Assembly: GCA_043809585.1 (NCBI GenBank)
Contig: JBDROZ010000072.1
Location: forward strand, 62,001 to 96,535
DNA length: 34,535 bases
Direction: 5' to 3'
From: Candidatus Eiseniibacteriota bacterium
Lineage (GTDB): Bacteria; Orphanbacterota; Orphanbacteria; Orphanbacterales; Orphanbacteraceae
The notes below the pieces were generated by a model, which saw only the letters and a program-made list of their open reading frames with translations, did no database searches and was not told where the DNA came from. The translations under genes were made by a program, and so were the position numbers. Shown here in pieces: positions 17,831 to 34,535 of this stretch. Each line of letters starts with the position of its first letter. The stretch's first letter is position 1.

Positions 17831-19098
17831 CCCTGCACCCCCGGCTTACCGATGTCTCTCCGCATCTGTTTCCCCCGGAATCGGACTTTGTCCGCTTCTT
17901 CGTACGCCCGTGCGAGGGCTTCCTCCACGGAAGCCCCCCGGGCGACCACGCCGAGAACCCGCCCCCCCGCGGTGACCCACCTCCCCTCCCGCCGGGCCGT
18001 GCCCGCGTGCAGGTGGAGCACCCCCTCCGGCGGGCCGTGGTCCAGCCCCTCGATCGGATCGCCCTTCTCCGCCTTCGCCGGATATCCGGCCGAGGCGAGG
18101 ACGACGCACGCCGCCGCCCCGTCGCGGGCGCGAAGGGGCGCCGGGTCCCACTCCCCCCGGGCGACCGCCGCGAACCGGGGGAGGAGATCGTCCTCCAGCC
18201 GCTCGAGCACCGCCTGGGTTTCCGGATCGCCGAAGCGGCAGTTGAATTCGAGGAGCTTCGGCCCCTCCGCGGTCAGCATGAGCCCCGCGTAGAGGATCCC
18301 CCGGTAGGGGGCGCCCCTCTCCCTCATGGTCCGGAGGACCGGACGAAACACCCGGTCCCCGATCTCCTCGAGAAAGCCGCCGTCGATGCCGGGGACGGGC
18401 GAGATCGCACCCATGCCCCCCGTGTTCGGTCCGGTGCCCCCCTCGCCAATCCGCTTGTAGTCCCTCGACGGGGGAAACAGGACGAAGTCCTCGTCCCGAA
18501 CGAGGGCGAGCACCGACAGTTCCTCTCCCCGGAGGAACTCCTCGAAGAGCAAAGTATCCCCCGCTCCCCCGAGCGTCTTCCCCACGAGAAAGGCACGCGC
18601 CGCCGCCGCCGCCTCTTCCCCGGTCCCGGCGATGACCACCCCCTTGCCCGCGGCGAGACCGTCCGCCTTGACCGCCGCCGGAAGGCCGAGGGCGGCGATC
18701 GCGCCGGGGACGTCCTCCATCGATCGGACTATCACGGACCGCGCCGTGGGGACGCCGCTCGCGGCGACCACCTCTTTGGTGAAGCACTTGCTCCCTTCGA
18801 GCCGCGCCGCCTCCCGGGAAGGACCGAAGAGGGACATCCCCTCCGCGGCGAAGAGATCCGCCACGCCTTCGACGAGAGGCGCTTCCGGGCCGATCAGCGT
18901 GAGGTCCGCCCCTTCCCGCCTCGCCGCCGCGAGGATCTCGACGGGAGAGAGCCCCCCGCCCCCGGCGGCGACCCGGGCGGGCGGATCGAAACCCTCCCGC
19001 CCCGGATAGGCGACCAGTTCCGGCTTTTCCGGAGACCGGGCCAGAGAATGGAGCATCGCGTGCTCCCTTCCCCCGTTGCCGACGACCAGTACTCGCAA
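17827..19098 (-). CDS. purD: Phosphoribosylamine-glycine ligase
   Basis: TTG at 19098 after GGGAGG gives MRVLVVGNGGREHA. Also LEGSK, KADGLAAGKGV, NTGGMGA, EFNCRFGDPETQ, GGRVL. Confidence 0.94.
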   Translation of the reverse strand: MRVLVVGNGGREHAMLHSLARSPEKPELVAYPGREGFDPPARVAAGGGGLSPVEILAAARREGADLTLIGPEAPLVEGVADLFAAEGMSLFGPSREAARLEGSKCFTKEVVAASGVPTARSVIVRSMEDVPGAIAALGLPAAVKADGLAAGKGVVIAGTGEEAAAAARAFLVGKTLGGAGDTLLFEEFLRGEELSVLALVRDEDFVLFPPSRDYKRIGEGGTGPNTGGMGAISPVPGIDGGFLEEIGDRVFRPVLRTMRERGAPYRGILYAGLMLTAEGPKLLEFNCRFGDPETQAVLERLEDDLLPRFAAVARGEWDPAPLRARDGAAACVVLASAGYPAKAEKGDPIEGLDHGPPEGVLHLHAGTARREGRWVTAGGRVLGVVARGASVEEALARAYEEADKVRFRGKQMRRDIGKPGVQG

Positions 19099-19187
19099 AT
19101 CGAACCTCCCTTTTCTGGTTCCCGTTCCGCTCAGAATCCGTACCGAGAATGATCCGAAGGGACTCCTCCGCCCGATCAGTTTTCCAA

Positions 19188-19368
19188 TAGCCGGTGGATG
19201 GCGGGAGGATTCGTCGCGAGGTCCAGGGGGAGGGAGGCGAGAGGGCTTTCCGCACGAGGAGCTCCCGGAATCGTAGCCGAAGCTACAATGAGGAAGCGAC
19301 GTAGGAGGAAAGTTCTCGCAGCCCCTGATCCCGGACCGCAGCGGAATCCTACCGGGATCCACCGGCTA
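19188..19368 (-). repeat. Imperfect palindromic intergenic element, copy A (181 nt)
   Basis: Perfect 12-bp terminal inverted repeat TAGCCGGTGGAT (19188-19199) / ATCCACCGGCTA (19357-19368). Further arm complementarity (AGGATTC/GAATCCT) and a central GTAGC-TTCG-GCTAC hairpin. Shares phased motifs with copies B and C. Confidence 0.85.
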
Positions 19369-20316
19369 CTTGAAGACCCATGAGAAGGAGAAGCGATGGG
19401 TGCCTCCCAGATCCGCCATGGAAGCGTAGGCGTAGTCGAACCGGTACCCCCGGATCTTCCGGAGGCCGAGCCCGAAGGTCAGCCCCGCAAGATCGCCGTC
19501 CTCGCTCCGGTCGCGGACCTCGGAGAAATGGGACCGGTAGCCGGCGCGGAGGAAGAAATCGGTCACCCCTTCCCATTCGACGCCGACATCGAGGCTGTTG
19601 TCCCAATCGACCGCCCAGCTCCACTCGCCCGCGACGAGGAGCCGCCGGTCGAAGAACGGGTAGGCGGCGGCGGCGGCGACCCGCGTGGGGAGAGGGTCGG
19701 CCTCCTGGAGGTAACCGGAGTTCACCGTGCCGAAATTACGGACCGTCCCCCCGATCCGGAGCCGGCGCCAGAAGTTCCTCATGAGCAGCCCGAAGTCGGC
19801 CGACATGGCGAGGGCGCTCTCCTGATCGATGGCGCCCGTGACGATCGCGCCCGAAGCCCCCACGAAGATGTTCCGGCCGAGCCGGTACGCCAGGGAGCCC
19901 TTGAGGCAGAGGTCGGTGGAGGTGAAGTCGCCGAGCCCGTCGCCTGTCGGATTCTCGAGGGTGGTCCGGGGGATGTCGCGGATCGAAAAGAAGCGGAGGG
20001 AGAGACCGAAGGTCGTTCTCCGTCCGACCGGCTGGGCGAAGACGACGGACCCCCCGTGAATGTCCTCGAGGTAGCTCATGTACTCGGTCGAAAGGGCGGC
20101 GTGGTTGAGCTGGCCGATCCCTGCCGGGTTCCACTCGAGCCCCTCGGCCCCTTCGGCGACCGCCGTGTACGCCTCCCCCATGCCGACGGCCCGGGCCCCG
20201 ACGCCGATCCGCAGGAAGGGAAAGCTGCGCGTACCGACCTGGTCGTTCGCCGACACGCCGGCGGCGGTGAGGACCGCCCCGATCGCCATCGCCGAGAGCC
20301 CCGCACCCCGTTTCAT
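19366..20316 (-). CDS. PorV/PorQ (UPF0164)-family outer-membrane beta-barrel protein
   Basis: Signal peptide, FLRIGVGARAVGMGEAYTA, WNPAG, LRAGY, C-terminal DYAY...LGGTHRFSFSWVF. Confidence 0.8.
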   Translation of the reverse strand: MKRGAGLSAMAIGAVLTAAGVSANDQVGTRSFPFLRIGVGARAVGMGEAYTAVAEGAEGLEWNPAGIGQLNHAALSTEYMSYLEDIHGGSVVFAQPVGRRTTFGLSLRFFSIRDIPRTTLENPTGDGLGDFTSTDLCLKGSLAYRLGRNIFVGASGAIVTGAIDQESALAMSADFGLLMRNFWRRLRIGGTVRNFGTVNSGYLQEADPLPTRVAAAAAYPFFDRRLLVAGEWSWAVDWDNSLDVGVEWEGVTDFFLRAGYRSHFSEVRDRSEDGDLAGLTFGLGLRKIRGYRFDYAYASMADLGGTHRFSFSWVFK

Positions 20317-20348
20317 CGAGAACTCCTCCTCTCAAGTTCGAAGCATAC

Positions 20349-20377
20349 CCTATACCATCCGCTCCCGCGAGCGTCAA
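20349..20377 (-). promoter_or_regulatory. Sigma70-type promoter for the PorV-family gene
   Basis: Minus strand TTGACG, 17-nt spacer ending in TGG, TATAGG. Confidence 0.5.
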
Positions 20378-20565
20378 CCTCCACGGTCTCTCCGCCGGAC
20401 CTCCGGAGTGGCGTTCACGATCAGCCTCCGCAACCCATTGCCGGAGGACCGGTTCAGGTCCCGCTTCGGGCGGCCCCCGGAACCCTCCGCCGGGGCAGGG
20501 GGTATTTCCGTCGAAGCATGTGGAGAAGGCGCGGAGCGGTTCCCCCCGGGGCGCGGGCGGCGATC

Positions 20566-20595
20566 TTGACACGCCCGGCGGCACCTTGGTACGGT
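20566..20595 (+). promoter_or_regulatory. Sigma70-type promoter for the TPR gene
   Basis: TTGACA (20566-20571), 18-nt spacer ending in TGG, TACGGT (20590-20595). Confidence 0.45.
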
Positions 20596-20651
20596 CGGAC
20601 CGCTCGAATCGAAACGCCGTTCCTTCTCCAAGTTCACGGAGGTGTGAAGAC

Positions 20652-21662
20652 ATGATGGTGAAGCGATCGCCTCTGATTCTCGGAATCCTGGTCCTGCTCC
20701 TCGCGGGCGCCACGGCCGCTCTCGGGGTGAGCGAAGAGGCCTTTCAGCTGAACGAGGAGGGCATCGCCCTGATGGACCGGGGGAAGTTCGAACAGGCGAA
20801 GGAGAAGTTCCTCGCCGCCGTCGAGGCGGACGGCGAGTACTGGGATGCCCGGGTGAACGCCGCCCGGGCCGCGGAGAAACTGGAGGATTGGGTCACGTTG
20901 AAGACCCAGTATCTGACGGTCCTCGAGTACGACGAGGAAAACTACGACGCTCTCGTCGGCATCGGCCACTACGAGGTGGCGACTTCGAACTTCGCCGACG
21001 CGGAGAAGCACTTCCGCAAGGCGCTGGAGATCGAGCCCCGGAGCGCCAGTGTCCGTTACGGCCTCGGAAACCTGTACCACAAGATGAAGAAACCCACGAA
21101 CGCCAAGGCGGAGTACGAGAAACTGATCGGCCTCGACCCGCGGGGTTACCCGCGGGCCTATCTCCGGCTCGGCCTGTACGAGTTCGACGGGGCCAAGCAG
21201 ACCAAGAAGTACGACGCCGCGGCCGCCCACCTCGAGAAGTACCTTACCCTCGACGACGATCCGGAGGGCGTGGGACTCGCCCATTACCGGCTCGCCCTGA
21301 TCTACTACCAGCAGAACAAGAACGAGAAGGCCCTCGCCCATTTCACCGAGGCGAAGAAGGCCGACCCGAGCGACTACCGGAGTTACTACTACTCCGCGGA
21401 GATCCACCGGAAGGCCGGGAACCGCGCGGCAGCGGAAAAGGAATACCTCGACGCGGTGAAGCGGAAGCCCGACCTCGGCGAGGCCCACTTCCAGCTCGCC
21501 ATCATGTATCAGCAGGACTACCGGGACGAGGACGCCCTGAACCACTACAAGCAGGCGGCGGCGGACAGGACTTTCAAGCAGCGAAGCCAGGCCCAGGCCC
21601 AGGTGGCGGCCCTCGAGGAGTACTTCCGAAAGCTCCGGGAGGCGGAGGCGGCCAACCAGTGA
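20652..21662 (+). CDS. Exported tetratricopeptide-repeat protein
   Basis: RBS GGAGG, signal peptide MMVKRSPLILGILVLLLAGATAA, and repeated TPR units (AEKHFRKALEIEP, AHYRLALIY, AHFQLAIMY). Confidence 0.88.
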   Translation: MMVKRSPLILGILVLLLAGATAALGVSEEAFQLNEEGIALMDRGKFEQAKEKFLAAVEADGEYWDARVNAARAAEKLEDWVTLKTQYLTVLEYDEENYDALVGIGHYEVATSNFADAEKHFRKALEIEPRSASVRYGLGNLYHKMKKPTNAKAEYEKLIGLDPRGYPRAYLRLGLYEFDGAKQTKKYDAAAAHLEKYLTLDDDPEGVGLAHYRLALIYYQQNKNEKALAHFTEAKKADPSDYRSYYYSAEIHRKAGNRAAAEKEYLDAVKRKPDLGEAHFQLAIMYQQDYRDEDALNHYKQAAADRTFKQRSQAQAQVAALEEYFRKLREAEAANQ

Positions 21663-21777
21663 TTCCGGATTCGGTCCGGGCCTACCGGTCCCTTGGGGCC
21701 CGGGTTTTCCGGGTACGCCCTCCCGGGAACCCACCCCCCTCGCGGGGACGGGCCCCGGGGGAGTGAAAAAACGTGAG

Positions 21778-21804
21778 AAAAACGCGGGTTTCCGCGTTTT
21801 TTTT
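21778..21804 (+). terminator. Intrinsic terminator hairpin after the TPR gene
   Basis: AAAAACGCGG-GTTT-CCGCGTTTTTTTT. Confidence 0.7.
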
Positions 21805-21805
21805 G

Positions 21806-21834
21806 TTGACACTCCCCCGGTCCGACGATAATTT
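21806..21834 (+). promoter_or_regulatory. Sigma70-type promoter of HU copy 2
   Basis: TTGACA (21806-21811), 17-nt spacer, TAATTT (21829-21834), with a T-rich upstream tract. Confidence 0.6.
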
Positions 21835-21878
21835 ACGGCCGGTTCGGAACCATTAACTCTCAACCCAGGGGGTGAGCC

Positions 21879-22148
21879 GTGAACAAAGGAGAACTGGTAG
21901 CGAAGGTCGCGCAGATGACCAACCTGTCCCAGCGTCAGACCCGGGACGTCATCGACGCCACGTTCGACACGATCAAGAAGAACACGAAGAAGAAGGAAGG
22001 CGTCCAGCTGGCCGGCTTCGGCAGCTTCACCGTGAGCCGCCGCAAGGCCCGCATGGGACGCAACCCGCAGACCGGCGAGAGCATCAAGATCTCGGCGAGC
22101 AAGAACGTTCGGTTCAAAGCGGGCAAGTCCTACAAGACCATGCTGTAG
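21879..22148 (+). CDS. hup: HU-family DNA-binding protein (copy 2)
   Basis: MNKGELVAKVA...VQLAGFGSFTVSRRKARMGRNPQTGESIKISASKNVRFKAGK. Confidence 0.93.
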   Translation: MNKGELVAKVAQMTNLSQRQTRDVIDATFDTIKKNTKKKEGVQLAGFGSFTVSRRKARMGRNPQTGESIKISASKNVRFKAGKSYKTML

Positions 22149-22163
22149 GACTCGGATCGATCG

Positions 22164-22196
22164 AAAGACCGCCGGGACCCTCCCGGCGGTTTTTTT
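22164..22196. terminator. Intrinsic terminator between the convergent HU and DUF4340 genes
   Basis: AAAGACCGCCGGGA-CCC-TCCCGGCGGTTTTTTT. Confidence 0.8.
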
Positions 22197-23466
22197 ATCG
22201 TTCCGGAGGCGTCGCGGGAACGAGCAGATCGCCGAGGGTGACGGAGAAGACCGCCCTCGCGCCGTCCGGAAGAATCAGAGCGCCCCTCTCCCCTTCACGG
22301 CGCGCGACGAACCCGGCACCCCCCTCGATGACGGAGACCGTCTCGCCGTCCGCTTCCACCGTCCACCGGGGCGTCACCTCTTCGTCAGGCGCGCCGGGGG
22401 GGAGAAAGGCGATCGCCTCCAGGTTCCCGAGGTTCCGGAGCCACGCCCGGGTCCGGGCCGGATCGGCGGGGAAGGTCTCTCCCTTCGTCACCGTCCACCC
22501 CTTTCCCGTTCTCGCGAGAGTGCACACTTCATTCCCCCCCTCGATGAGTCTGACACGATCCGCCTCCAAGGGATCGAGCCCCAGGAGCGACCGATCGAGG
22601 GGCTCCGCGGCGTGGGCGAAGAGGGAGTCCCGAACGTACCGGGGCAGGCGAAACAGACCCGGGCGGTCGGTGGCGCGGGCGAGGAGGAGCGAGGTCTCGG
22701 GAACGGCGTCGCCGATTTCGAGGGTCCCCTCTCCCCCCGCCCACCCCACGGTCACGCGGAAAGGCCTCGGCCCCTCCCGGAACTCCGTCTCCTCCGAGAA
22801 CGAGTGGATCCTCGAGACGTTCACTGCCCGGACGACCCCCCACGGGAACTTCGGATCCGCCCGGAGCCCCGCCTCGGCGACGAACCACCGATCGTCCCCG
22901 CGCCGTTCGATCGTCCAGCTCCGGCCGCGTTGCTCCACGCTCACGCGGCGAACCTCGGAGGGGGGAAAACGGAGGAGTCGATGGTCCCTCAGGCGGCGAA
23001 GGGGAAGATCGAGAATCGGAGCCATCTTCCCCGTCGCGAGGAGCACCCGTTTCACGCCGGGTTCGGAGATGTAGACTCCCTCCCCGCCGGGGCTGCGGAG
23101 GCCGACGAGGATCTCCCGTCCGCCGACCGTCACCCGGGCCCGGGGGGGACGGAGCCCGTACGACCGGGCGAATGGGGGGTCTTCGTCCGCGATGCCCAGC
23201 ACCGCCGCCCCCCGAAGACTGCGGATCAGCCCGTCGATCATCGACGAGTCCGCCCGGTCCTCGATGGGGGAGACGATCCACCAGACGCCGTCCCGGACGG
23301 CGAGGGCCGCCGTCGTCGAGTCGTTTTCGATGTCGAACCGGAGGATGGGATCGGGAAAGCGGGGAAAGACGAGGGCCCCGTCCTCTTCTCCGCCCCCCCC
23401 GCAGTGAAGGGAGAGGACGACAAGAAGCAGAGCAACTTCCGTTCTGATCCGGTTTGCATCAGCCAC
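22195..23466 (-). CDS. DUF4340-like exported (lipo)protein
   Basis: Hydrophobic N-terminus ending LSLHC, then three repeats of a W-x-V/I...AD...L pattern (WWIVSPIEDRAD, WFVAEAGLRAD, WTVTKGETFPAD). Confidence 0.6.
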   Translation of the reverse strand: MADANRIRTEVALLLVVLSLHCGGGGEEDGALVFPRFPDPILRFDIENDSTTAALAVRDGVWWIVSPIEDRADSSMIDGLIRSLRGAAVLGIADEDPPFARSYGLRPPRARVTVGGREILVGLRSPGGEGVYISEPGVKRVLLATGKMAPILDLPLRRLRDHRLLRFPPSEVRRVSVEQRGRSWTIERRGDDRWFVAEAGLRADPKFPWGVVRAVNVSRIHSFSEETEFREGPRPFRVTVGWAGGEGTLEIGDAVPETSLLLARATDRPGLFRLPRYVRDSLFAHAAEPLDRSLLGLDPLEADRVRLIEGGNEVCTLARTGKGWTVTKGETFPADPARTRAWLRNLGNLEAIAFLPPGAPDEEVTPRWTVEADGETVSVIEGGAGFVARREGERGALILPDGARAVFSVTLGDLLVPATPPER

Positions 23467-23523
23467 ATCTATTCCCGCCCTGTCCGCACAGTCGTTTCCC
23501 CCCGAGTCCGTAAACGGAGCCGG

Positions 23524-23770
23524 AAGGCCGCGGTTCTCGCCAGTTTCCGTAGCGAGGATGTGGATCGGACGGCGAGAGGCCGACTGGGACGAGCCGCTCC
23601 CGGAGGCGGGGCCATAAGATCCTCCCCCCGGGCGCTAACACTTATCGCTCCTAACCGTCGCGATAAGTCAAAGCGCCCGACGGGCCCCGCTGAGGAAGCG
23701 GCGACGGAAAGGAGGCCTCGCAGCCTCCGAGCCGCGGCCGCAGTAGGAAACTGAAGAGAAACGCGGCCTA
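23524..23770 (-). repeat. Imperfect palindromic intergenic element, copy B (about 247 nt)
   Basis: Terminal arms AGGCCGCGGTTCTCGCCAGTTTCC / GGAAACTGAAGAGAAACGCGGCCT. Nested stems GCGGGGCC/GGCCCCGC, CGGGCGCT/AGCGCCCG, CTTATCGC/GCGATAAG. Clear similarity to 34376-34535. Confidence 0.88.
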
Positions 23771-24544
23771 GCCGGTCTCCTTCAGCTTCTCCTTCGCAAG
23801 AGGCGCTTCGACGGACCCCGGAAACTCGTCGACGAGGCGGGTCAGGATCTTCCGCGCCTCACCCGGGTCCCCCAACTCGAGAAAGCAGGTCGCCCGCTTC
23901 AGCAGGGCCGCGGGAATCCGCTCCGAGTCCGGGAAGTCCCGCTCGATCCGGGCGAACCGTTCCGCCGCCTCCCCGGGCTCCCCTTCGGCGAGGTAGCACT
24001 CTCCGATCCAGTAAAGGGCGTCGTCGGAGAGGGAACTCCTCGGATAGGCCTGGAGATAGGCGTCGAATCCGGCAAGGGCCGCCCGGTAGTTTCCCCGGAC
24101 GAGGTCGAGATAAGCGGCGTCGAAGAGCGGTTTCGGATCGACGACCACCGCGGCCTCGTCCGTCTGCCCGGTTTCGGAGCCGGCGGGAGGAGACGGCGCG
24201 GAGCCGAGCCGGTAACGTACCCGGTCCAGCTTCCCGTCCATCCTCTCCACCCGCTCGTTGGTCTCTCCGAGGCTTTGGTCGAGAGCGTCGATCCGGCCGA
24301 GCACCTCCTCCCTCCCCGCGGTGATCTCGGCCCGCAGGGCGCGGAGGATCTCCATCTGCTCTTCCGAGAGCCCCTCGATGCGGACCAGCCGCTCTTCGCC
24401 CTCCGCCTGCCCCTCCCGGAGGGCGGCGATCTCCCGGGCGTTCTCGTCGGTGGTGATGGGGCCCCGCACCAGCTGCTTGCCGTAGCAGCCGGCGCCGAGG
24501 AGGGCCCCGATCCCGAGAAGCGCGCCGATCCGGAACGGTCTCAT
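23768..24544 (-). CDS. cpoB: Tol-Pal associated protein CpoB/YbgF
   Basis: Lipobox LGAGC, coiled-coil segment, TPR C-terminus (YLQAYPRSSLSDDALYWIGE, PAALLK). Lies directly after pal. Confidence 0.88.
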   Translation of the reverse strand: MRPFRIGALLGIGALLGAGCYGKQLVRGPITTDENAREIAALREGQAEGEERLVRIEGLSEEQMEILRALRAEITAGREEVLGRIDALDQSLGETNERVERMDGKLDRVRYRLGSAPSPPAGSETGQTDEAAVVVDPKPLFDAAYLDLVRGNYRAALAGFDAYLQAYPRSSLSDDALYWIGECYLAEGEPGEAAERFARIERDFPDSERIPAALLKRATCFLELGDPGEARKILTRLVDEFPGSVEAPLAKEKLKETG

Positions 24545-24552
24545 CGATCCCC

Positions 24553-25068
24553 CTAACGACTCACATGAAACTCGGCGCGCCGGTTCTTCGCCCACGCCTC
24601 TTCGTTGTGGCCCGCGTCGACGGGGCGCTCCTTGCCGTAGGAGATAATCCCGATCTTGTCCGCCTTGACGCCGTAGCGAACGAGAAAGTCCTGCGCCGAT
24701 TTCGCCCGCTTCTCGCCGAGGGCGAGGTTGTACTCGACCGTGCCCCGCTCGTCGCAATGGCCCTCGATCCGCACCGACCAGCCCGGGTTCCGCATGAGGA
24801 CCTTGGCGTGCTCGGTCAACATGCTCTGGGCCTGCGGCTGCAGACGGAACTTGTCGAACTCGAAGTGGATGTTCTGGAAGTCGTACTTCTGATCGGGATC
24901 GACTTCCACCACCGGCTTCGGTTCCGGCACCGGCTCGGTTTTCACCGGCGCGGGAGCCTTCTCGATCGGCTCGGGCAGCGGAATCTCCTTCTTCGATCCG
25001 CACGAGGCGATGAGGGGTAGGATCATGAGCATGACCACCAAGATCGCGAACGGGGTTCTCTTCGACAT
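24553..25068 (-). CDS. pal: Peptidoglycan-associated lipoprotein
   Basis: Lipobox IASC, IHFEFDK, IEGHCDERGTVEYNLALGEKRA, SYGKERP, NRRAEF. Confidence 0.95.
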   Translation of the reverse strand: MSKRTPFAILVVMLMILPLIASCGSKKEIPLPEPIEKAPAPVKTEPVPEPKPVVEVDPDQKYDFQNIHFEFDKFRLQPQAQSMLTEHAKVLMRNPGWSVRIEGHCDERGTVEYNLALGEKRAKSAQDFLVRYGVKADKIGIISYGKERPVDAGHNEEAWAKNRRAEFHVSR

Positions 25069-25097
25069 TTCTGCCTCTCCCTTTCGTGGCCGCCGCT

Positions 25098-26342
25098 CTA
25101 GAAGCGGGGCCGTGGAGACCAGGACGGCGAGTAGTCCTCTCCCTCGCCCGGCACAAGAAGGCGGACACCGCTGCCGTCCGCCTGCATCACGTAGAGCCTT
25201 CTCTTCCCGGTTCGTGAGGAAGTGAAAACCAGGTGCCTTCCATCCGGGGACCACTCCGGATCCTCGTTGTTGCCACTCTGGGCGGTCAAAAGATACGATT
25301 CCTGATCGACCAGGTCAAGAACGCGGATTTGGAACCCCCCCTCCTCCCGGGAGGCGTAGGCGATCCGGTCCCCCCGGGGGGACCACTTCGGGGAGGCGTT
25401 GTAGTCCCCGCCGAAGGTGAGCCGCCGGACATCCGATCCGTCGTCGTTCATCCGGTAGACCTGGGGTCCGCCGCTCCGGTCGGAGACGAAGAGGATCTGC
25501 CGCCCGTTCGGCGCCCACGCCGGCGAGGTGTCGATCCCCCGGTGATGGGTCAGCCGCCCGAGACCGGTGCCGTCCCTCTTCATCACGTAGATCTCCGAGT
25601 CCCCGTCCCGGGTCATCATGAGGGCGATCCGCTTCCCGTCGGGGGACCAGGCGGGGGCGCTGGTCATGCCGGGGGAACGGATCACGGGGCCGCCGGTCCC
25701 CCGCTCCACTTCGCGCCAGAAGATGTCCGGGTCCCCTTCGGCGTAGGACGTGTAGAGGAGGATCCCCCCCTCGGGGGACCACTCCGGCGTCAGGTTCACC
25801 GTGCCGTCGGAGATCACCTTGCGGAGATTCGAACCGTCCCAGTCGACCACGCAGATCTCCGAGTTTCTCCCGTCGGAGCGGACGAAGGCAATCCGGGTTC
25901 GGGAGATTCCCCGCTCTCCGGTCAGATGATAGATCACGTCATCCGAAAAGCGGTGCGCCCCGTCCCGGGGACCGGAGGCGCCGAGGTCCTGGAGGGACGA
26001 CGCGATCCGCTCCCCCCCCGGCGCCTGGTGGATCGACCCCTGCAGAACCCCTTCCCCGGCGTCGATGAAGGCGTCGACGGTCGCCCGGGCCCTCACCGAG
26101 TCCGCACCGTGGGGTGGGATCATGTCGAAGAACCCCGAGATCGAGAGGTCCCGGGAGACCACGGCGTTCAGGGTCTCGGCGAGGCGCTCGTCCCCCGTGA
26201 AAGGCCGGAGGATGATCGGGATCCGCTCGGTCCGGTACTTGGTGACGCCGAGCCAGACTTCCGTTTGCGCCTGGGCCGCCCCGGCGGCGGCGAATAGAAC
26301 CGCCAAGACGACCGGCAGGCTAACCTCCAAACGTAAAGACAA
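25098..26342 (-). CDS. tolB: TolB beta-propeller protein (start may be TTG 26330)
   Basis: Signal peptide, AHRFSDDV...TRIAFV, and multiple P-x-WSPDG (PD40) repeats. Confidence 0.92.
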   Translation of the reverse strand: MSLRLEVSLPVVLAVLFAAAGAAQAQTEVWLGVTKYRTERIPIILRPFTGDERLAETLNAVVSRDLSISGFFDMIPPHGADSVRARATVDAFIDAGEGVLQGSIHQAPGGERIASSLQDLGASGPRDGAHRFSDDVIYHLTGERGISRTRIAFVRSDGRNSEICVVDWDGSNLRKVISDGTVNLTPEWSPEGGILLYTSYAEGDPDIFWREVERGTGGPVIRSPGMTSAPAWSPDGKRIALMMTRDGDSEIYVMKRDGTGLGRLTHHRGIDTSPAWAPNGRQILFVSDRSGGPQVYRMNDDGSDVRRLTFGGDYNASPKWSPRGDRIAYASREEGGFQIRVLDLVDQESYLLTAQSGNNEDPEWSPDGRHLVFTSSRTGKRRLYVMQADGSGVRLLVPGEGEDYSPSWSPRPRF

Positions 26343-27045
26343 AGTTCACCCCCAGCCGCTCCCCCGGGAATCCCTCCGGAAGAGGCGGAAAAGGATTGCA
26401 CTCGTTCACCGCCCGGAGCGCCGACTGATCGAAAAAGGGAACACCCGACGAGACCGAAAGGTGGGCGCTCCGGACCGAGCCGCTGCGCTCGATCTCGAAG
26501 CGGACCGTCGCCTTCGGCATCCTCCCCCCCCCGACCAACCCCCGGGGGGGCATCCACCGACCGCCGATCCGGGCCTCGATCAGCGCCAGGTAGTAGGCGA
26601 AAGGAAAATCCTCCGCCTCCACGGTCACGGCGCCCGTGCTGGAGGTGACCCCCTTCGGCGTCTCCGCCTTCACGGTCTCTTTCATCGGCTCAGCCTTCTT
26701 CTCTTCCTTCTCGGGTTCCGGCTTCTTCTCCGGCTCCTTCTTCTTCGGCCGAGGCTTTTCGGGGATCCGCTCCGGGATCTTCTCCGGCTCCGGTTCCGGG
26801 ACCATCTGCACTTCCGGCTCCGGGAGCTTCTCCGGTTCCGGCTCCGGGAGCTTCACCTCTTTCTTAGGCGCTTCGGGAACGGGAACCGCCTTCTTCTCCG
26901 GCTGCAGCTCGACGATGCTCACCCGGTAGACCGGAGGGCGGGGAACGGGGACCCTCGCCCGCACTGCGTTCACGTAAAGGAAACAGAGAAGCACATGGAC
27001 GGCGATGGACAGGAGAACGAAGGGACGGAGGTTCCTACCGTCCAC
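26320..27045 (-). CDS. TolA/TonB-family energy transducer
   Basis: TM helix with SIAVH (SHLS-type motif), Pro/Glu/Lys-rich spacer, C-terminal domain ending SSGVPFFDQSALRAV...FPPLP. Confidence 0.85.
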   Translation of the reverse strand: MDGRNLRPFVLLSIAVHVLLCFLYVNAVRARVPVPRPPVYRVSIVELQPEKKAVPVPEAPKKEVKLPEPEPEKLPEPEVQMVPEPEPEKIPERIPEKPRPKKKEPEKKPEPEKEEKKAEPMKETVKAETPKGVTSSTGAVTVEAEDFPFAYYLALIEARIGGRWMPPRGLVGGGRMPKATVRFEIERSGSVRSAHLSVSSGVPFFDQSALRAVNECNPFPPLPEGFPGERLGVNFVFTFGG

Positions 27046-27445
27046 CGGCCGCCTCCTCCGGACGGGAGACGAGACCGACGTTCTGGATGCCCGCCCCCTT
27101 CAAGATGCCGATCAGGCGGACCACAGTCCCGTACGGGACCGCGCCGTCCCCCCGGACGTACACCTCCCGCGCTCCGGAGGCGACGACCCGGGTCTCGATC
27201 TCGGCGGCCATCTCCTCGAAAGAGAGTCGCCGCTCGTTTAGAAAGACCGAGCCGTCCTTCGCCACCGTGACCACCCACGAATCGCTCATGTCGATCCCCT
27301 GGACCTTCGCCTGGGGAAGATCGACGTCCACCCCCTCCGAGAGGAGAGGCGCCGTAAGCATGAACACGATGAGAAGAACCAAAGTCACATCGACGAGGGA
27401 AGTCACGTTCACCTGGGAGAGGGGCTCGTACTCATGCATCGGCAT
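27035..27445 (-). CDS. tolR: TolR/ExbD
   Basis: NVTSLVDVTLVLLIVFMLTAPL, VDLP, VRGD...YGTV. Confidence 0.9.
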   Translation of the reverse strand: MPMHEYEPLSQVNVTSLVDVTLVLLIVFMLTAPLLSEGVDVDLPQAKVQGIDMSDSWVVTVAKDGSVFLNERRLSFEEMAAEIETRVVASGAREVYVRGDGAVPYGTVVRLIGILKGAGIQNVGLVSRPEEAAGGR

Positions 27446-28172
27446 CGCTTCCCTCCCGGGTGAGACGGTCGGCGAGGGAAGACCGGAACCGCTCCAAGTC
27501 GATCGACAGGCGCCGGAGCCGGCCGAGGAAGTGGTTATAGGCGACCACCGCGGGGATCGCCGCAGCGAGGCCGGCGACGGTCGTGATCAGCGCCTCGGCG
27601 ATTCCGGGACCGACGACGGAGAGGCTGGCCGATCCTTTCACGCCCATGGCGAGGAAGGCGCTCATCACGCCCCACACCGTGCCGAAAAGGCCGAGAAAGG
27701 GGGATACGTTCGCCGTGGTGGCGAGAAAGGGAAGGTGTCTTTCGAGAACGGCGAGCTCCGCGAGGGCGCTCCTTTCCATGGCCCGCTCGATCCGGTCCTT
27801 CCGGGCCCCGGGGAGGCCGCCGGGACGGTCCCAGACGGTGCCGGGGAGTTCGCCCGTCGCTCCCGCTCCGTGCCCTTCCCGGAGGCCGGCGATCAGCAGG
27901 TTCCGGAGGGGGGTCGCGGCGTAGGCGGCGGAGGTGCACCGTCTCAGGGCGGCGCCGAGATCGCCCGGTCCGTCGTACACGGCCCAGAAGCGGCGCGACC
28001 CGAGCACCAGGGACCGGAACCGGAAAAGCTTCTGGAGCATGATCGCCCAGGAGACGACGGAGAAGAAGAGGAGCACCAGAAGCACGGCCTTGGCCACCGG
28101 CCCCGACTGCATGATCAAGGTCGGTATGCTCCGCTCCATGTCGCCGGACAGCAGGATGTTGGAAACCGGCAT
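27432..28172 (-). CDS. tolQ: TolQ/ExbB proton channel
   Basis: FLATTANVSPFLGLFGTVWGVM, PGIAEALITTVAGLAAAIPAVVAYN. ATG 28172 follows a purine-rich RBS and lies downstream of the promoter. Confidence 0.92.
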   Translation of the reverse strand: MPVSNILLSGDMERSIPTLIMQSGPVAKAVLLVLLFFSVVSWAIMLQKLFRFRSLVLGSRRFWAVYDGPGDLGAALRRCTSAAYAATPLRNLLIAGLREGHGAGATGELPGTVWDRPGGLPGARKDRIERAMERSALAELAVLERHLPFLATTANVSPFLGLFGTVWGVMSAFLAMGVKGSASLSVVGPGIAEALITTVAGLAAAIPAVVAYNHFLGRLRRLSIDLERFRSSLADRLTREGSDADA

Positions 28173-28238
28173 GCCTTCCTCCCCCTCCTCAGACGCTTCG
28201 ATGGCCTTCGAGGTTCTCGTTCTGTCGAATTCGGCGCG

Positions 28239-28267
28239 AGTATAGGCAAGGGGATGGGGAGTGTCAA
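28239..28267 (-). promoter_or_regulatory. Sigma70-type promoter of the tol-pal operon
   Basis: Minus strand TTGACA (28267-28262), 17-nt spacer, TATACT (28244-28239). Confidence 0.7.
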
Positions 28268-28288
28268 CGCGACGTGGGCAATGCGGGG

Positions 28289-28324
28289 AGAAAAGAGAAG
28301 CGCCCACCGCGAACGGTGGGCGCT
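28289..28324 (-). terminator. Intrinsic terminator after the atypical HU gene
   Basis: Minus strand AGCGCCCACCG-TTCG-CGGTGGGCGCT followed by TCTCTTTTCT. Confidence 0.75.
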
Positions 28325-28349
28325 CTCGTCGGACCTCGTTCGTCCGGCC

Positions 28350-28625
28350 CTACTTCATCACGTATTCGCGGTACATCTTGTTCGGAGTGAACTGAACGGT
28401 CTTCGGGCCCTGCACGTAGGTGTACTTCTTCGTGCGGGAGTTCCATTTGCGCTTCGGCTTGTCGCCGACGCACTTGAAGTTGCCGAAACCGGTCAGCTTG
28501 ATGCCCGTGCGGGACTTCGAGTAGTACTTGATCCCGTCCAGGGTCCAGTCGACGGCCCACTTCGCCTCTTTCGGCGCCATCTTCGTCTTCCGGCTCACAT
28601 AAGCGACGAGCTTCGTCTTGTTCAT
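28350..28625 (-). CDS. Divergent HU/IHF-family protein (copy 3)
   Basis: 91 aa, MNKTKLVAYVSRKT...IKLTGFGNF...WNSRT...VQFTPNKMYRE. Has the HU-type N-terminus, GFG-x-F and F-x-P motifs, RBS AAAGGAAG and its own terminator. Confidence 0.8.
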   Translation of the reverse strand: MNKTKLVAYVSRKTKMAPKEAKWAVDWTLDGIKYYSKSRTGIKLTGFGNFKCVGDKPKRKWNSRTKKYTYVQGPKTVQFTPNKMYREYVMK

Positions 28626-28724
28626 TTTCTTCCTTTCCCGGTTCGCCTCCCCCGGTTCCAAACGCCTCGAGCGCCGAGCGCCACGTCCGGGCGGCGGAGA
28701 CATCACGATCCATTGCGCGGTCTT

Positions 28725-28741
28725 AGCATCTCCCATGCCAA
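28725..28741 (-). promoter_or_regulatory. Putative sigma54 (-24/-12) promoter
   Basis: Minus strand TTGGCATGGGAGATGCT compared with consensus YTGGCACGNNNNTTGCW. Exact GG-N10-GC spacing, with an AT-rich tract just upstream. Confidence 0.5.
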
Positions 28742-28887
28742 CACAGTGAAATGGGTTGGGCTGCCTAATGGTATTTTATTATATTACAACGAGATACCGA
28801 GTTTCTTCGAGAGGTCGGAGGAGCAAGAGGGCAGAGGCCCGATCGAGCGGATGCGGGTCCTCATATGGCATGTTTTTGGGCGTTCGA

Positions 28888-30213
28888 TCAAAAACCGTGC
28901 GGGGCTCCGGGGGAGAGAACCGACCGGAGGAAGCGGTCGAGCGCCTCGGTCTGCCGGGGGAAGGAGAGTTCTTCGATGCCGGGCCGGTCCGGATCGTGCC
29001 GGAGGGTGCCGGAACGCCAAGCCTCGTAAGCGGCCGCCAGGGCGCCGGCCACCTCGTCGGGCCGCGTCACCTCGGCGCGGGCGCCGAGACGGAGTCGCTC
29101 CACCATGACGCGGGCCTCGCCGGGAGGGCCGATGGTGAGCACCGGCCGGCCGGCGGCCATGTATTCGTACAGTTTTCCGGAGACGATCTGCTCGCTCCCC
29201 GGACCGGCGGCGATGACCTGAAGGAGGAGGTCCGCCGACGCCATCCACGCGAGGCTCTCCCGGTGGGCGAGAAAGCCGGTGAACTCCACGTCCTTCTCGA
29301 GGCGAAGTTCCCGGGCCGCCTCCCGCACGCGCTCGCTCTGAGCGCCGACCACGACGAGCCGTGCCTTCCCGCGGTCGATCCGCCCCGACTCGAAGCATCG
29401 CCGGAACGGTTCCAGCAGGAGGCGCGGATCGGTCCTCCGATGAAAGGTGCCGACGAAAACCATGGTGAACCGGTCCGACTCGATCTTCCGGAGGCCGTCG
29501 AAATCCTCGGGGTCATAGCCGTTGTGGATGGTCGTGAAACGCCCACCCCGCCCCCCCGCCGCTCCCGCGAGGATCCCGCGGATCGTGTCGTTCACGGCGA
29601 CCACGCCGTCCGCCTCCCGGAGGACCGATCGCTCGAGCCTTCCCGAGAGGAACCGGTGGAGGGGCGTCGGGGCCGGAAGGTCGGGATTGGCGGTCCAGGC
29701 GTCCCGGAAATCGGCCACCCACGCCACACCCGTGGCCCGCTTGATCGCCCGGCCGATCAGATGGCAGGTCTGGGGGACGTTGATCGTGTAGACCAGATCG
29801 ATCTTCTCCTCCCGGACGAGGCGCGTCCCCGCTCGGGAAGCGAAGGGGAGCCAGCCGATCTTGTTGTCGGGGACGAAGAGCCAGGTGTTCACGCCCTTCG
29901 CGGCCCGGGTGATCCGGCCGAAGAGCGGGTCCTTCCCGGCGCCGTCGGTGGCCGATTCTTTCGAAGGTCGTTTGACGCGGCCGAAGAGTCGGAACGGATC
30001 GAGGCTTTCCGTCCGGATCACCCGAACCGATTCGTCGATCTCGCGGGAGAGCGTCGGGTCGATGCAGTAGTAGTAGGCCGGCTCGGGAGTGAGCACCCAC
30101 GGCTTCCAGCCGAGGCGGGGAAGGTATCGTGCCAGCTTCAAGGCCCGGAAGGCCCCCACGCCGCCGAGGGGGGGGAAGTAGTAGGAGACGAGAAGGACTC
30201 TACGTTCCATCAT
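28888..30213 (-). CDS. Glycosyltransferase family 4 (GT-B)
   Basis: VLLVSYYFPPLGG, WVADFRDAW, IHNGYD, SGKLYEYMAAGRPVL. The start could be 30234. Confidence 0.88.
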   Translation of the reverse strand: MMERRVLLVSYYFPPLGGVGAFRALKLARYLPRLGWKPWVLTPEPAYYYCIDPTLSREIDESVRVIRTESLDPFRLFGRVKRPSKESATDGAGKDPLFGRITRAAKGVNTWLFVPDNKIGWLPFASRAGTRLVREEKIDLVYTINVPQTCHLIGRAIKRATGVAWVADFRDAWTANPDLPAPTPLHRFLSGRLERSVLREADGVVAVNDTIRGILAGAAGGRGGRFTTIHNGYDPEDFDGLRKIESDRFTMVFVGTFHRRTDPRLLLEPFRRCFESGRIDRGKARLVVVGAQSERVREAARELRLEKDVEFTGFLAHRESLAWMASADLLLQVIAAGPGSEQIVSGKLYEYMAAGRPVLTIGPPGEARVMVERLRLGARAEVTRPDEVAGALAAAYEAWRSGTLRHDPDRPGIEELSFPRQTEALDRFLRSVLSPGAPHGF

Positions 30214-30246
30214 ACCATCCCGCCCCGTGGCCATCGGCGTTCGGGA

Positions 30247-30665
30247 TCAGACCAGTTCGCGCTCGGCGAAAAAGAAACCGATTTCCCGGGTCGCGTTTTC
30301 CGGCGAGTCGGACGCGTGGACCGAGTTGCGTTGGATGTCGACCCCGAAGTCCCTCCGGATCGATCCTTCCCGCGCCTTGGCCGGGTTGGTCGCCCCGATG
30401 AAATCCCGGAGGGCCGGAACGGCGTTCTCCATTTCCAACACCACGGGGACGACCACGCCGGAGATCATGTATTCGACGAGCTCCCCGTAGAAGGGGCGCT
30501 CCCGGTGAACGGCGTAAAAACTCTCCGCTTCTTCCTTCCGGAGCCGGAGCGCCCGAATCCCCCGCACGTGGAATCCGGCCCCTTCGAGGCGCCCGAGAAT
30601 CCTGCCGGTGAGGTTTCTCTCCGTGGCGTCGGGCTTCACCATGAGCAGGGTACGACTCACCATGA

Positions 30666-30669
<4 letters not shown>
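30247..30669 (-). CDS. ndk: Nucleoside diphosphate kinase
   Basis: [38 protein letters not shown] overlap with the sucD stop. Confidence 0.95.
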
Positions 30670-31757
<1,088 letters not shown>

Positions 31758-31759
31758 GA

Positions 31760-32902
31760 CTACGCCTCCCCTCTCTTCGCGACCTTCACCACGGCTTTCA
31801 CCGCGTCGTCCATGCCGGTCACGCTCGTGTAGCCCGCGTCCCGGAGGATCTTCTTCGCCACCTCTTCGTTCGTCCCGGTCAGGCGGATGACGATCGGCAG
31901 GCCCGTGGGCCTCTTGGCGAAGGCCGATTTGATGCCGTTTGCCACGTCGTCGCACCGGGTGATGCCGCCGAAGATATTAAAGAGGATCGCCTCCACCTTC
32001 GGGTCCCCGGTCAGGATGCCGAGGGCCGCCTCCACCTTCTCGGGAGAGGAGCTCCCGCCGATGTCGAGAAAGTTGGCCGGCTCGGCGCCGTAGTGTTTGA
32101 TCACGTCCATGGTCGCCATGGCGAGGCCCGCCCCGTTCACGATGCAGCCGATGTTGCCGTCCAGGGGCACGTAGGAGAGTCCGTTCTCCCGGGCGAGGAT
32201 CTCCGCCGGGAGCTCGGCGTCCGGGTCGCGCATCGCCGCGATCTCCGGCTGACGGAAGAGGGCGCTGTCGTCCACGTTGATCTTGGAGTCGATCGCCCAC
32301 ACATCGCCGGATGGGGTGGTGATGAGCGGGTTGATTTCGGCCAGCGAAGCGTCGCTCGCGAGGAACGCCTCGTACAACTTCCGGATGACGGACGCCGCCT
32401 CCTTGATCTGTTTCGGATCCGTGTAGAGCTTCGCCGCGAGCCAGCGGGCCCCGTAGTTCCGGAGCCCCGCGGTCGGGTCCACGGTGTAGCGGAAGATCTT
32501 CTCCGGCGTCTCCCGGGCGACCTGCTCGATGTCCACTCCCCCCGCCGGGCTGACGAGGAATGTGAGCCGCTTCGTGTCCCGGTCGAGGATCATCCCCACG
32601 TACGCTTCCGTGGCGATGTCCACCGCCTTCGAGACGAGGACCTTCTTCACCGTGAGGCCCTTGATGTCCATCCCGAGGACGGCCCCCGCCGTCGGCTCCA
32701 CGTCCGCGAGGTTCGCGACGTACTTCACGCCCCCCGCCTTCCCCCGGCCGCCGACGTGGACTTGGGCCTTCACCATCACCGGCGCGCCGATCCGCTCCGC
32801 CGCGGAACGGGCGTCGGCCGCCGTGGTGACCGCCTCGCCGTCCGGCACCCGGACCCCGTGCCGGCGAAAGATGTCTCTCGCCTGGTACTCGTGAATCTTC
32901 AT
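31760..32902 (-). CDS. sucC: Succinyl-CoA synthetase beta subunit
   Basis: [58 protein letters not shown]. Confidence 0.96.
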
Positions 32903-32904
32903 GA

Positions 32905-34275
32905 CTACCTGCTCCGTTTCTTCGAGGTCCTCTTGCGCCCGGGCGCGCTCTTCGAAGCCTGCTTCCAAAACCGGGTGATGACTTCCTCCAGGTCGGGCTT
33001 GCCGATCTCCTGCAGGGAGTAGGTGACGCGGACCGTCGGGAGCGGGATGTCGATGAGCCGGGAGAGGTCGATGGGCGTGCCGATCACGACGACTTCCGCG
33101 TCGGAGGCCTTGATGGTCCGTTCCAGATCCCTCACCTGCTTCTTCCCGTAACCCATCGCCGGGAGCACCGGTCCGGTTTCCGGGTATTGCTCGAAAGTCC
33201 GGGCGATCGTCCCCTTCGCGAAGTCCCGGGGATCCACCGCCTCGGCGGCTCCGAATTTGAGGGCCGCGACCATGCCGGCGCCGAACTCCATCTCCCCGTG
33301 GGTGACGGTCGGGCCGTCCTCGATGATCAGGACCCGCTTGCCCGGGAGCAGCTCCGGCCTGTCCACCGAAACGGGCGAGGCCGCGTCGATGATCACGGCG
33401 TTCGGGTTCGCCGCCCGAACGTTGCGGCGGACCTCTTCGATGTCGTCCGCGTCGGCCGTGTCGATCTTGTTGATCACGACCACGTCCGCCATCTTCACGT
33501 TGGCCTCGCCGGGATGGTACGAGACCTCGTCCCCGGGCCGGTGGGGATCGACGACGACGATGGCGAGATCCGGCTTGAAGAAGGGCATGTCGTTGTTCCC
33601 GCCGTCCCAGATCACCACGTCCGCCTCTTTCTCCATCTCTTTGAGAATCGCCCCGTAATCGACCCCGGCGAAGACCGGTGTCTTGTTCATCAGGTGCGGT
33701 TCGTACTCCTCGCGCTCCTCGATGGTGCACTCGTGCTTCTCGAGGTCCTTGTACGTCCTGAAGCGCTGCACCGCCTGTTTCGCCAGGTCGCCGTACGGCA
33801 TCGGGTGGCGGGCCACCGCCGGCTTGGCGCCGAGGGCCCGGAGGATGTCGACGACCCGGCGCGTGGTCTGGCTCTTTCCCGATCCCGTCCGGCCCGCGCA
33901 AACCGAGACGACCGGCTTCGTGCTCGGAATCGCCGTGGCCTTCATGCCCATCAGGCGGTAGTCCGGCCCGGCGGCGAGCACCGACGAGCCGATGTTCATC
34001 ACGTACTCGTGGGGGATGTCGCTGTAGGCGAAAATCACTTCGTCGATCTTCTTCGCCTCGATGAACTCCAGGAGTTCCGACTCGGCGATGATCGGAATGG
34101 GCGCGTCGTAGTGGGGCCCGGCCAGCGCGAGCGGGTAGGCGCGCCCGTCGATGTTCGGGATTTGGGTGGCCGTGAACGCCACGACTTCGCTGTCCGGATC
34201 GTTCCGGAACACCGTATTGAACGTGTGAAAATCTCGGCCCGCGGCCCCCATGATCACCACGCGTTTCCTCTTCAT
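32905..34275 (-). CDS. COG2403 P-loop protein (cyclic 2,3-diphosphoglycerate synthetase / arginine synthetase-like)
   Basis: IMGAAGRDFHTFN, VAFTATQIPNI, RTGSGKSQT, RHPMPYG, TIEEREEYE, WDGGNND, EDGPTVTHG. ATG 34275 follows GGGAG. Confidence 0.8.
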   Translation of the reverse strand: MKRKRVVIMGAAGRDFHTFNTVFRNDPDSEVVAFTATQIPNIDGRAYPLALAGPHYDAPIPIIAESELLEFIEAKKIDEVIFAYSDIPHEYVMNIGSSVLAAGPDYRLMGMKATAIPSTKPVVSVCAGRTGSGKSQTTRRVVDILRALGAKPAVARHPMPYGDLAKQAVQRFRTYKDLEKHECTIEEREEYEPHLMNKTPVFAGVDYGAILKEMEKEADVVIWDGGNNDMPFFKPDLAIVVVDPHRPGDEVSYHPGEANVKMADVVVINKIDTADADDIEEVRRNVRAANPNAVIIDAASPVSVDRPELLPGKRVLIIEDGPTVTHGEMEFGAGMVAALKFGAAEAVDPRDFAKGTIARTFEQYPETGPVLPAMGYGKKQVRDLERTIKASDAEVVVIGTPIDLSRLIDIPLPTVRVTYSLQEIGKPDLEEVITRFWKQASKSAPGRKRTSKKRSR

Positions 34276-34364
34276 TCTCTCCCGTCCTTCATGCGGTTCT
34301 CGTTGACTCGGGACCGGCGGAGGCCGAACCGACTGAGGCCTGGGCCCCTGGAACACGGATGCCG

Positions 34365-34373
34365 ATTGTAACA
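34365..34373 (-). promoter_or_regulatory. Extended -10 promoter for the COG2403-sucCD-ndk operon
   Basis: Minus strand TGT-TACAAT (TGn + -10), about 90 nt upstream of the start codon. Confidence 0.45.
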
Positions 34374-34375
34374 CC

Positions 34376-34535
34376 TAGCCTGGATTATGCACATATCTCC
34401 TACTGCGATCTCGGATCGCCGCCTGCGAAGCCTCCTTTCCTTCGCCGCCTCCTCGACGGGGCCCGTGGCGCACTTTCATCTTCTCGCGACCGCTCGGAGC
34501 GAGAAGTGTTAGTGCGCCGGGGGAGCCCCCCGGGC
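34376..34535 (+). repeat. Imperfect palindromic intergenic element, copy C (truncated by the window end)
   Basis: TAGCC...TCCTACTGCG...CTGCGAAGCCTCCTTTCC-TCGCCGC-TCCTC...GGGGCCCGT...AAGTGTTAG...GGGGGAG aligns nearly gap-free with the reverse complement of 23610-23770. Confidence 0.88.

Follow-up and report, generated by a model that had tools for sequence, protein, structure and literature searches.

A probable family of TA-targeting hairpin MITEs that settles on stop codons in Candidatus Eiseniibacteriota and other bacteria

The 34,535-nucleotide stretch that we analyzed (positions 62,001 to 96,535 of contig JBDROZ010000072.1 in the Candidatus Eiseniibacteriota bacterium assembly GCA_043809585.1; the whole stretch is called the window below) carries three imperfect palindromes, A, B, and C, which belong to one non-coding repeat family. 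[quoted passage not shown] The element is or was mobile, and it inserts into the TA of CTAG with duplication of the TA. Its copies persist for genus-level times, over which the hairpin and the unpaired motifs about 20 nt apart are kept while the stem sequences turn over, and old copies survive almost only where they are oriented like the gene or tRNA that they border on the 3' side. We class the repeat as a new MITE family. Each of its traits has precedent; what makes it unusual is that its length is fixed, that phased internal motifs are conserved in distant genomes, that it sits exactly on stop codons, and that its old copies survive in sense orientation only.

A repeat family of fixed architecture

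Copy A (19188..19368, minus strand; C72:81188-81368) represents the short, 181-nt form of the element and has a unique outer stem. It was matched at 160.8 bits, over model positions 1-180, by R1, a covariance model built from an alignment of 38 copies (A2) whose RNAalifold consensus is one 55-pair hairpin. Copy B (23524..23770, minus strand; 155.9 bits) is the long, 247-nt form, which corresponds to the short form plus an additional hairpin module at the apex. Copy C (34376..34535, plus strand) comprises the first 160 nt of a young copy of the subfamily that we refer to as class I, in its long form and with the terminal inverted repeat (TIR) TAGCCTGGATTATGCA; it is incomplete because the window and the contig both end at 34535, and complete counterparts of ~300 nt occur elsewhere in the same genome (C3:60214-60515 and contigs C6, C45, and C58). 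An earlier sequence-only reading had picked out these three palindromes and their motifs at offsets 28, 48, and 68, which proved to be invariant in a three-way alignment (CTGCG at 28-32, CTGCGA at 48-53, and CG.CGC.TCCTC at 68-79, counted 1-based from the T of TAG).

The same motifs were followed through 129 copies of 176-186 nt, 73 from the source genome (G000; 4.24 Mb, 123 contigs) and 56 from three other species genomes of the phylum (G003, G004, and G007). CTGCG stands at offset 28 in 112 of the 129, CTGCGA at offset 48 in 67 (with CTRYGR within 2 nt in 93), and CGYCGCYTCCTC at offset 68 in 46. CTCGYNAC begins 33 nt from the 3' end in 107 copies, matching the 3'-arm motif CCTCGC that had been placed 34 nt from the end. 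The 20-nt phasing is likewise real: in the 84 copies matching both of the first two patterns, the spacing between these motifs is 20 nt in 59, 23 nt in 24, and 21 nt in 1, and the phased motifs may be protein-binding sites. Of 140 copies, 66 open with the triplet TAG, preceded by a variable base, and many copies begin (G)TAG.

The basic form of the element measures 179-184 nt, and longer forms bear additional apical hairpin modules. In one class I variant of ~320 nt (L031, G000:C82, 1443-1765), a second hairpin module, GC-rich, is inserted in the right arm, and the family is in this respect mosaic, as BIMEs are. Two 247-nt copies (G000:C22:66208-66454 and C119:40-286) are followed by ggagcgataagtg, which is the right half of another copy's apical module, indicating nested insertion at the CTAG in the loop of that module. 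Some class I copies sit inside the apical module of a different copy, at its CTAG, and solo ends in G000 are truncated copies.

That many copies would exist genome-wide had been anticipated, and blastn with A, B, and C found 132 merged places in G000, where R1 gave at least 119 matches at E ≤ 0.01. Full-length copies number 85 among the R1 matches listed in this genome, namely 73 of 179-184 nt, nine long ones of 243-249 nt, and three shorter ones. Reverse-strand matches score far lower than forward ones (~50 versus ~180 bits), and the orientation of the element is therefore well defined. Across the 10 species genomes of the phylum (G000 to G009), R1 counted 110 copies in G000, 31 in G003, 34 in G004, 2 in G005, 65 in G007, and 49 in G008; no match was found in G001, G002, G006, or G009, so that 6 of the 10 are carriers. 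Outside the phylum, three full-length copies are present in G016 (a genome of ~43% G+C from another phylum), 12 in G041, 4 in G042, 7 in G043, and 2 in G045. The full-length copies in G016, G041, G042, and G043 (~43-48% G+C) score 44-90 bits, and a match in G045 reaches 168.4 bits at 0.68 G+C. The copies in the AT-rich genomes (G016 and G041 to G043) retain the 179-184-nt length, the TAG start, and the internal motifs, and their terminal sequence is TAGGGCACCTCTAAAAAC. The spread beyond the phylum is under-sampled: of the 78 loci listed by a degenerate-motif scan of species genomes, which led to G041, G042, G043, and G045, R1 confirmed 11, and the other 67 were chance matches.

The family is recovered by R1 and corresponds to no Rfam family: Rfam 15 gave no match in the window at the gathering score, and at E ≤ 1 the only match on four element loci was a chance-level miRNA (E 0.89). 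A literature search of limited coverage found no description of the repeat.

Copies differ in age. Young class I copies share a near-identical 16-nt TIR, with the ends TAGCCTGGATTATGCA...TGCATAATCCAGGCTA; TAGCCTGGATTATGCA and its complement occur in most copies of G004 and G007 and, among the 83 copies of G000 whose flanks are usable, in 17. The young subfamily carries TAGCCTGGATTATGCA in three genera. In 60 of the 83 G000 copies, A and B among them, the outer stem is less than 80% identical to that of any other copy. G004 and G007 also contain intermediates, with class I ends bearing paired substitutions, and hence the unique stems look like those of diverged, compensated class I descendants. 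The sequence-only reading had taken the terminal repeat to be unconserved, unlike that of classical MITEs; this does not hold for the young subfamily, and the divergent outer stems are those of older copies. More than 50 of the 148 TIR matches in G000 lie within 300 nt of contig ends, and the contigs end inside class I copies or their long forms. Near-identical copies thus break the assembly, so that the repeat is a main cause of its fragmentation, the true copy number is higher, and contiguity is underestimated.

Insertion, orientation, and co-variation of the arms

The sequence-only reading had proposed a mobile or protein-bound family and a search for empty TA sites in relatives, and two filled/empty pairs were found. 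L171 of G007 could be compared with G004:C1, in the same genus, and its flank spacing fits TA duplication. The flanks of L175 of G007 meet at a single CTAG in L288 of G004, where 181 nt are absent, which again fits TA duplication. In both pairs, the spacing to conserved flank words fits c-TA-[G...C]-TA. The duplication was thus seen in two of two clean comparisons; at a third locus, G004 has a remnant of the element that is truncated, and no clean junction was obtained for L164 and L172. All class I copies in G000 are flanked C-TAG...CTA-G. Five relatives lack copies A and B at the corresponding, orthologous loci. At the locus of copy A, a PorV-like gene and purD follow each other in the same order without the element in G003 and G004, where the PorV-like orthologues end at the same residue.

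Because the first base of the element is G, a stop codon, whether TAG or TAA, is formed anew when the element enters its TA, and the protein stays intact. In 58 of 85 copies, an open reading frame (ORF) of at least 100 codons stops no more than 9 nt from the element's 5' end, usually at offset 0; the same is true of the 3' end in 19 of 85 copies, and of 3.7% of 2000 random positions. The corresponding 5' and 3' counts, with ORFs limited to 150 codons by the flanks, are 11 and 0 of 19 copies in G003, 8 and 4 of 17 in G004, and 13 and 9 of 20 in G007, and the same placement repeats in the AT-rich genomes. Since stop-rebuilding insertions are harmless, copies accumulate exactly at gene ends.

Accumulation at gene ends depends on orientation in old copies only. 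When copies were sorted by whether a long ORF ends at the 5' end only, the 3' end only, both, or neither, the 23 class I-like copies were unbiased (7, 5, 6, and 5), whereas the other 62 were strongly skewed (38, 1, 7, and 16; binomial P = 1.5e-10). Insertion thus seems to be orientation neutral and long-term survival not, and such orientation-biased survival would point to an effect at the transcript level. Two G000 copies begin 1-2 nt after tRNA-Gly and tRNA-Gln, in sense orientation, and an orthologous copy directly behind tRNA-Gln is common to G003, G004, and G007, which represent two genera.

We also considered copies at the same site in G000 and in other genera as possible orthologues, and rejected them as such: they are no more alike than random pairs, and the element may have entered the same stop codon independently in each case. 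In one such case, copies beside the same conserved gene (G000:C23:23505-23685 and L149 of G004) lie in opposite orientation, which could reflect either independent insertion or inversion.

Each complete copy in the window forms one long hairpin, on either strand, and is far more stable than shuffled sequence. As RNA, copy A forms a single long hairpin of -102 kcal/mol (z = -9.41), which none of 200 shuffles equaled; its complement folds as well (-103.8, z = -7.29), and with DNA parameters the value is -47.4 (z = -5.81). Copy B yields -144.1 (z = -7.25) and its opposite strand -145.5 (z = -7.77). Over the 55 pairs of the A2 alignment, 91.4% of cells are paired, versus 68.6% in column shuffles, and 486 cells are doubly changed, versus 138 (0 of 500 shuffles reached either value); compensatory changes occur in 46 of the 55 pairs, and sliding the partner column reduces pairing to at most 44%. 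The sequence-only reading was right that structure rather than sequence is kept, in most stems as judged by these shuffle and slide controls, and that the outer ~25 nt differ between copies yet remain self-complementary: helix 1 is 89.2% paired despite the divergent outer stems. Mean identity between genomes is 0.70 in the core and 0.42 in the outer arm. Conserved asymmetric loops persist in the hairpin, and selection on sequence must therefore act too.

The tRNA-Gln orthologues allow the turnover of stems to be followed between species. Changes on both sides that remain paired number 5 between G007 and G004, 8 between G004 and G003, and 14 between G007 and G003, next to 3-5 one-sided changes and no wobble intermediates, and some indels appear, in our judgment, to be mirrored across the arms. 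One-sided changes from G-C to G-U are almost absent in the variable helices. These paired changes exceed what independent mutation and selection easily give over such short distances, which suggests arm-to-arm templated correction.

Mechanism and rival explanations

The element is probably moved in trans by a DDE transposase of the IS630/Tc1-mariner type, which would bind the terminal repeat and possibly also the subterminal motifs that are phased; IS630 elements prefer CTAG. The co-variation of the arms could stem from selection on the folded strand, from arm-to-arm templated repair, or from both, and retained sense-oriented copies may be tolerated or useful as RNA hairpins at 3' ends. No cognate transposase was found, and the window encodes none, as the sequence-only reading had also noted. 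IS630-type (DDE_3) genes are present in G000, G004, G008, G041, and G043, with fragments in G001, and were not detected in G003, G005, G007, G016, G042, or G045. The IS630 copies of these genomes are themselves TA or CTAG flanked, and the closest resemblance between ends is 14/20 identity, for a G008 IS630 end and a G016-type MITE end. Where two TIR-like ends in G000 are separated by 0.34-4 kb, the genes between them are housekeeping ones (fbaA and a glycosyltransferase gene), with no transposase gene. No recognizable transposase was found on short G000 contigs, a weak negative, as GC-rich DNA gives spurious ORFs.

An IS630-family element of ~1.12 kb was seen at L110 946-2065 (G008) and at L298 710-1832. 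Its ends are cTAGAGAGTCTCG..., and its flanks, GGCTAG...CTAGCC, resemble abutting ends of the hairpin element.

Several observations weigh against a TA-targeting MITE moved by such an enzyme. The TIR is shared by none of the six IS630 copies examined (two from G000, one from G008, one from G041, and two from G043) and by none of five relatives found in a metagenome search with the G008 IS630 transposase, and G003, G005, and G007 carry 31, 2, and 65 copies without a detected DDE_3 gene. The clean empty sites are only two, both in one genus and both of the young subfamily, and the second TA is not universal, in that 11 of 140 copies end CTT instead of CTA. A cut-and-paste enzyme acting on double-stranded DNA does not explain why the hairpin is conserved, why indels are mirrored, or why orientation is biased. 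The comparison of G.U with A.C, meant to identify the strand, is mixed as well: on the sense strand of the outer helix, G.U is rarer than A.C (7 versus 41 in A2, 11 versus 65 in the relatives, and 23 versus 70 in 78 de-duplicated stems), and the conserved helix 2 shows the opposite (G.U 70 versus A.C 4).

The sequence-only reading had favored likeness to attC sites or REP/IS200-605 ends, recognized as folded single strands. In the REPIN-like form of this idea, a Y1 (HUH) transposase of the RAYT/TIRYT type would move the element in folded, single-stranded form, and a hairpin serving as the Y1 substrate would explain why structure is kept over sequence. The arms do co-vary, as in REPINs (PMC3116915), many copies start (G)TAG, and GTAG-headed REPs supply TAG stops (PMC3733652; both sources as available in part). 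Y1 (PF01797) genes occur in 10 of 11 carriers (all 6 of the phylum plus G016, G041, G042, and G043, and not G045); none was found in the element-free G001, G002, and G006, which belong to the same family, and the match in G009 is weak. However, this co-occurrence is weak evidence because the carrier genomes are related, and Y1 genes are common anyway (6 of 14 control genomes). Moreover, the 219-amino-acid (aa) Y1 gene of G000 is bounded not by the hairpin element but by GGGGACAC-type repeats that fit the TIRYT motif GGGGWSAS given in the available part of PMC3733652, and R1 found no element within ~1.5 kb at 15 of 16 Y1 loci (L074, L075, L118-L123, L125, L126, and L293-L297), the exception being L127, where an element lies ~1.1 kb from a weak partial Y1 match. 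HUH single-strand transposition makes no TA duplication, whereas both empty sites show one, and TA duplication in CTAG is typical of classical TA-targeting MITEs (IS630/Tc1-mariner type, ERIC, and Correia) and not of attC sites or IS200/IS605 ends. We consider a Y1-driven element unlikely. A most improbable relative of this explanation is an attC-like or other site-specific recombination site whose folded strand is recognized by a tyrosine recombinase. It would agree with an outer-stem structure conserved beyond sequence, but the copies are single and dispersed behind housekeeping genes and tRNAs without cassette arrays (no search for an adjacent integrase was made), their conserved center and variable ends are the reverse of attC, and they duplicate TA at insertion.

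The element could instead be primarily a functional transcript structure, such as a terminator lacking a U tract, a 3'-end stabilizer, or a processing signal for mRNA or tRNA, with mobility secondary or past. Retention of old copies in sense only (38 versus 1), the copies 1-2 nt behind tRNA-Gly and tRNA-Gln, the orthologous tRNA-Gln copies with compensated stems, core motifs at ~70% identity where outer stems drop to 42%, a 179-184-nt length fixed across distant genomes, and conserved sense-strand G.U positions in helix 2 are all in line with such a role. Set against them are the lack of an Rfam match, the absence of a U-run 3' of the hairpins, the near absence of one-sided G-C to G-U changes and the excess of A.C over G.U in the variable helices, and the young copies, which are orientation neutral and polymorphic between species. 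Copies A and B are also missing at orthologous loci, and since same-site copies across genera show only random-pair likeness, a site may look conserved when its stop codon has simply been hit repeatedly. We give a primary transcript function little weight. It is possible, though we would not call it likely, that the old sense copies have become domesticated 3'-end modules: 181-nt hairpins that have the stop codon in their base or lie against the 3' end of a tRNA, acting as U-tract-less terminators or 3'-end protectors. Arm-to-arm templated correction would then keep the hairpin and account for substitutions and indels that are mirrored but show no G.U intermediates, and the module would have been retained at fixed length in distant lineages.

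Other repeats were seen around the G000 Y1 gene (IS200-like/TIRYT-like; L074, G000:C51:14169-17495). Repeats of the GGGGGACAC(G/A)ATACCGAA type at 1027-1046 and 2057-2100 bracket it, and hairpins of a related kind (GGGGGACA) are found repeatedly at contig ends; these repeats appear to form a family of their own, associated with TIRYT. Directly after the gene, at L074 1125-1210, lies an 85-nt CTAG-flanked mini-palindrome whose start, TAGCCTTGAT, agrees with the class I TIR at 9 of the first 10 nt. Ends of the TAGCCTTGATCTTTCA type number about 20 in G000. The TAGCCTTGAT and TAGCCTTGATCTTTCA ends suggest that several MITE families may use one transposase.

Neighboring genes and kinship with known repeats

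The TAG that forms the first three nucleotides of copy A (19366..19368, minus strand) is also the stop codon of the upstream gene, a 316-aa PorV/UPF0164-like outer membrane protein (19369..20316, minus strand; ORF 19366..20316; Pfam PorV 7.4e-9), and downstream lies purD (17830..19104, minus strand), with GARS_N/A/C domains. Copy B is placed in the same way: it shares its TAG (23768..23770, minus strand) with the stop codon of an upstream 466-aa TPR protein gene (23771..25168, minus strand; ORF 23768..25168; TPR families), and a gene for a DUF4340 protein, recognized by domain search, lies downstream (22198..23466, minus strand). The additional apical module of copy B, ~70 nt at 23614..23683 (minus strand), appears as an alignment gap in the short forms; by blast, query positions 88-157 of copy B are missing in short copies, and seven more full B-type copies exist in the genome. 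When contigs of four sequencing runs were aligned to 17500-25500, no junction spanning copy A or B was seen, only low-depth identical contigs; run-contig junctions that skip from 23613 to 23684, replacing the module of copy B with a 4-nt loop, derive from other copies. Elsewhere in the window, at 30672-30866, five overlapping CTTCTTC/GCC-rich repeats with 27/30-nt periods probably represent a repetitive coding stretch on the minus strand.

Longer forms of ERIC arise from ~70-bp inserts at fixed internal sites. Compared by architecture and behavior only, ERIC and our element are both whole-length imperfect palindromes with TA at both ends that lie in transcribed 3' regions and whose orientation matters for the upstream mRNA, and ERIC affects mRNA decay (available part of PMC3184786). 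In contrast, ERIC is ~127 bp long, enterobacterial, and apparently unrelated in sequence, whereas the hairpin element is 181 nt long, sits exactly on stop codons, shows a very strong sense bias among old copies, and is spread over several distant lineages. MITEs that target TA, such as Correia/NEMIS and RUP, are similarly non-coding, shorter than 300 bp, and provided with terminal inverted repeats, duplicate TA, and vary in presence between relatives, and MITEPsy1 is a MITE with a duplicated CTAG-type target (PMC3189936, as available in part). Our element differs from them in that no parent insertion sequence with matching ends was found, that its internal sequence, and not the TIR alone, is conserved across distant genomes, and that its stems co-vary.

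REPs and REPINs share with it compensatory hairpin changes (PMC3116915), ends that give TAG stops to flanking ORFs (PMC3733652), and Y1 genes in the same genomes, as far as the available parts of these sources show. However, REPs are 20-40 nt long, REPINs are doublets, and the RAYT gene is flanked by its own repeats, whereas here a single 181-nt hairpin duplicates TA. The bcr1 repeats of the Bacillus cereus group and Chunjie of Geobacter uraniireducens, at 155-235 bp, have very stable folds like ours, and bcr1 also shows compensatory changes (PMC3184786). In the available part of that source, the direct repeats measure 5 bp in bcr1 and 9 bp in Chunjie, which is A+T-rich, and neither shows TA/CTAG targeting; the direct repeats and A+T-richness rule out Chunjie as a relative.

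The repeat marks the 3' ends of dozens of genes in a poorly known phylum, where neither annotation pipelines nor Rfam recognize the family, and it offers a clean case of a TA/CTAG-targeting element that lives on stop codons without harm to genes. With more than 140 copies over several genera, orthologues included, it forms a natural data set of co-evolving hairpin arms with which palindrome-templated repair could be told apart from selection on folded RNA or DNA. Should the retained copies turn out to be terminators or stabilizers, they would define transcript ends in these bacteria.

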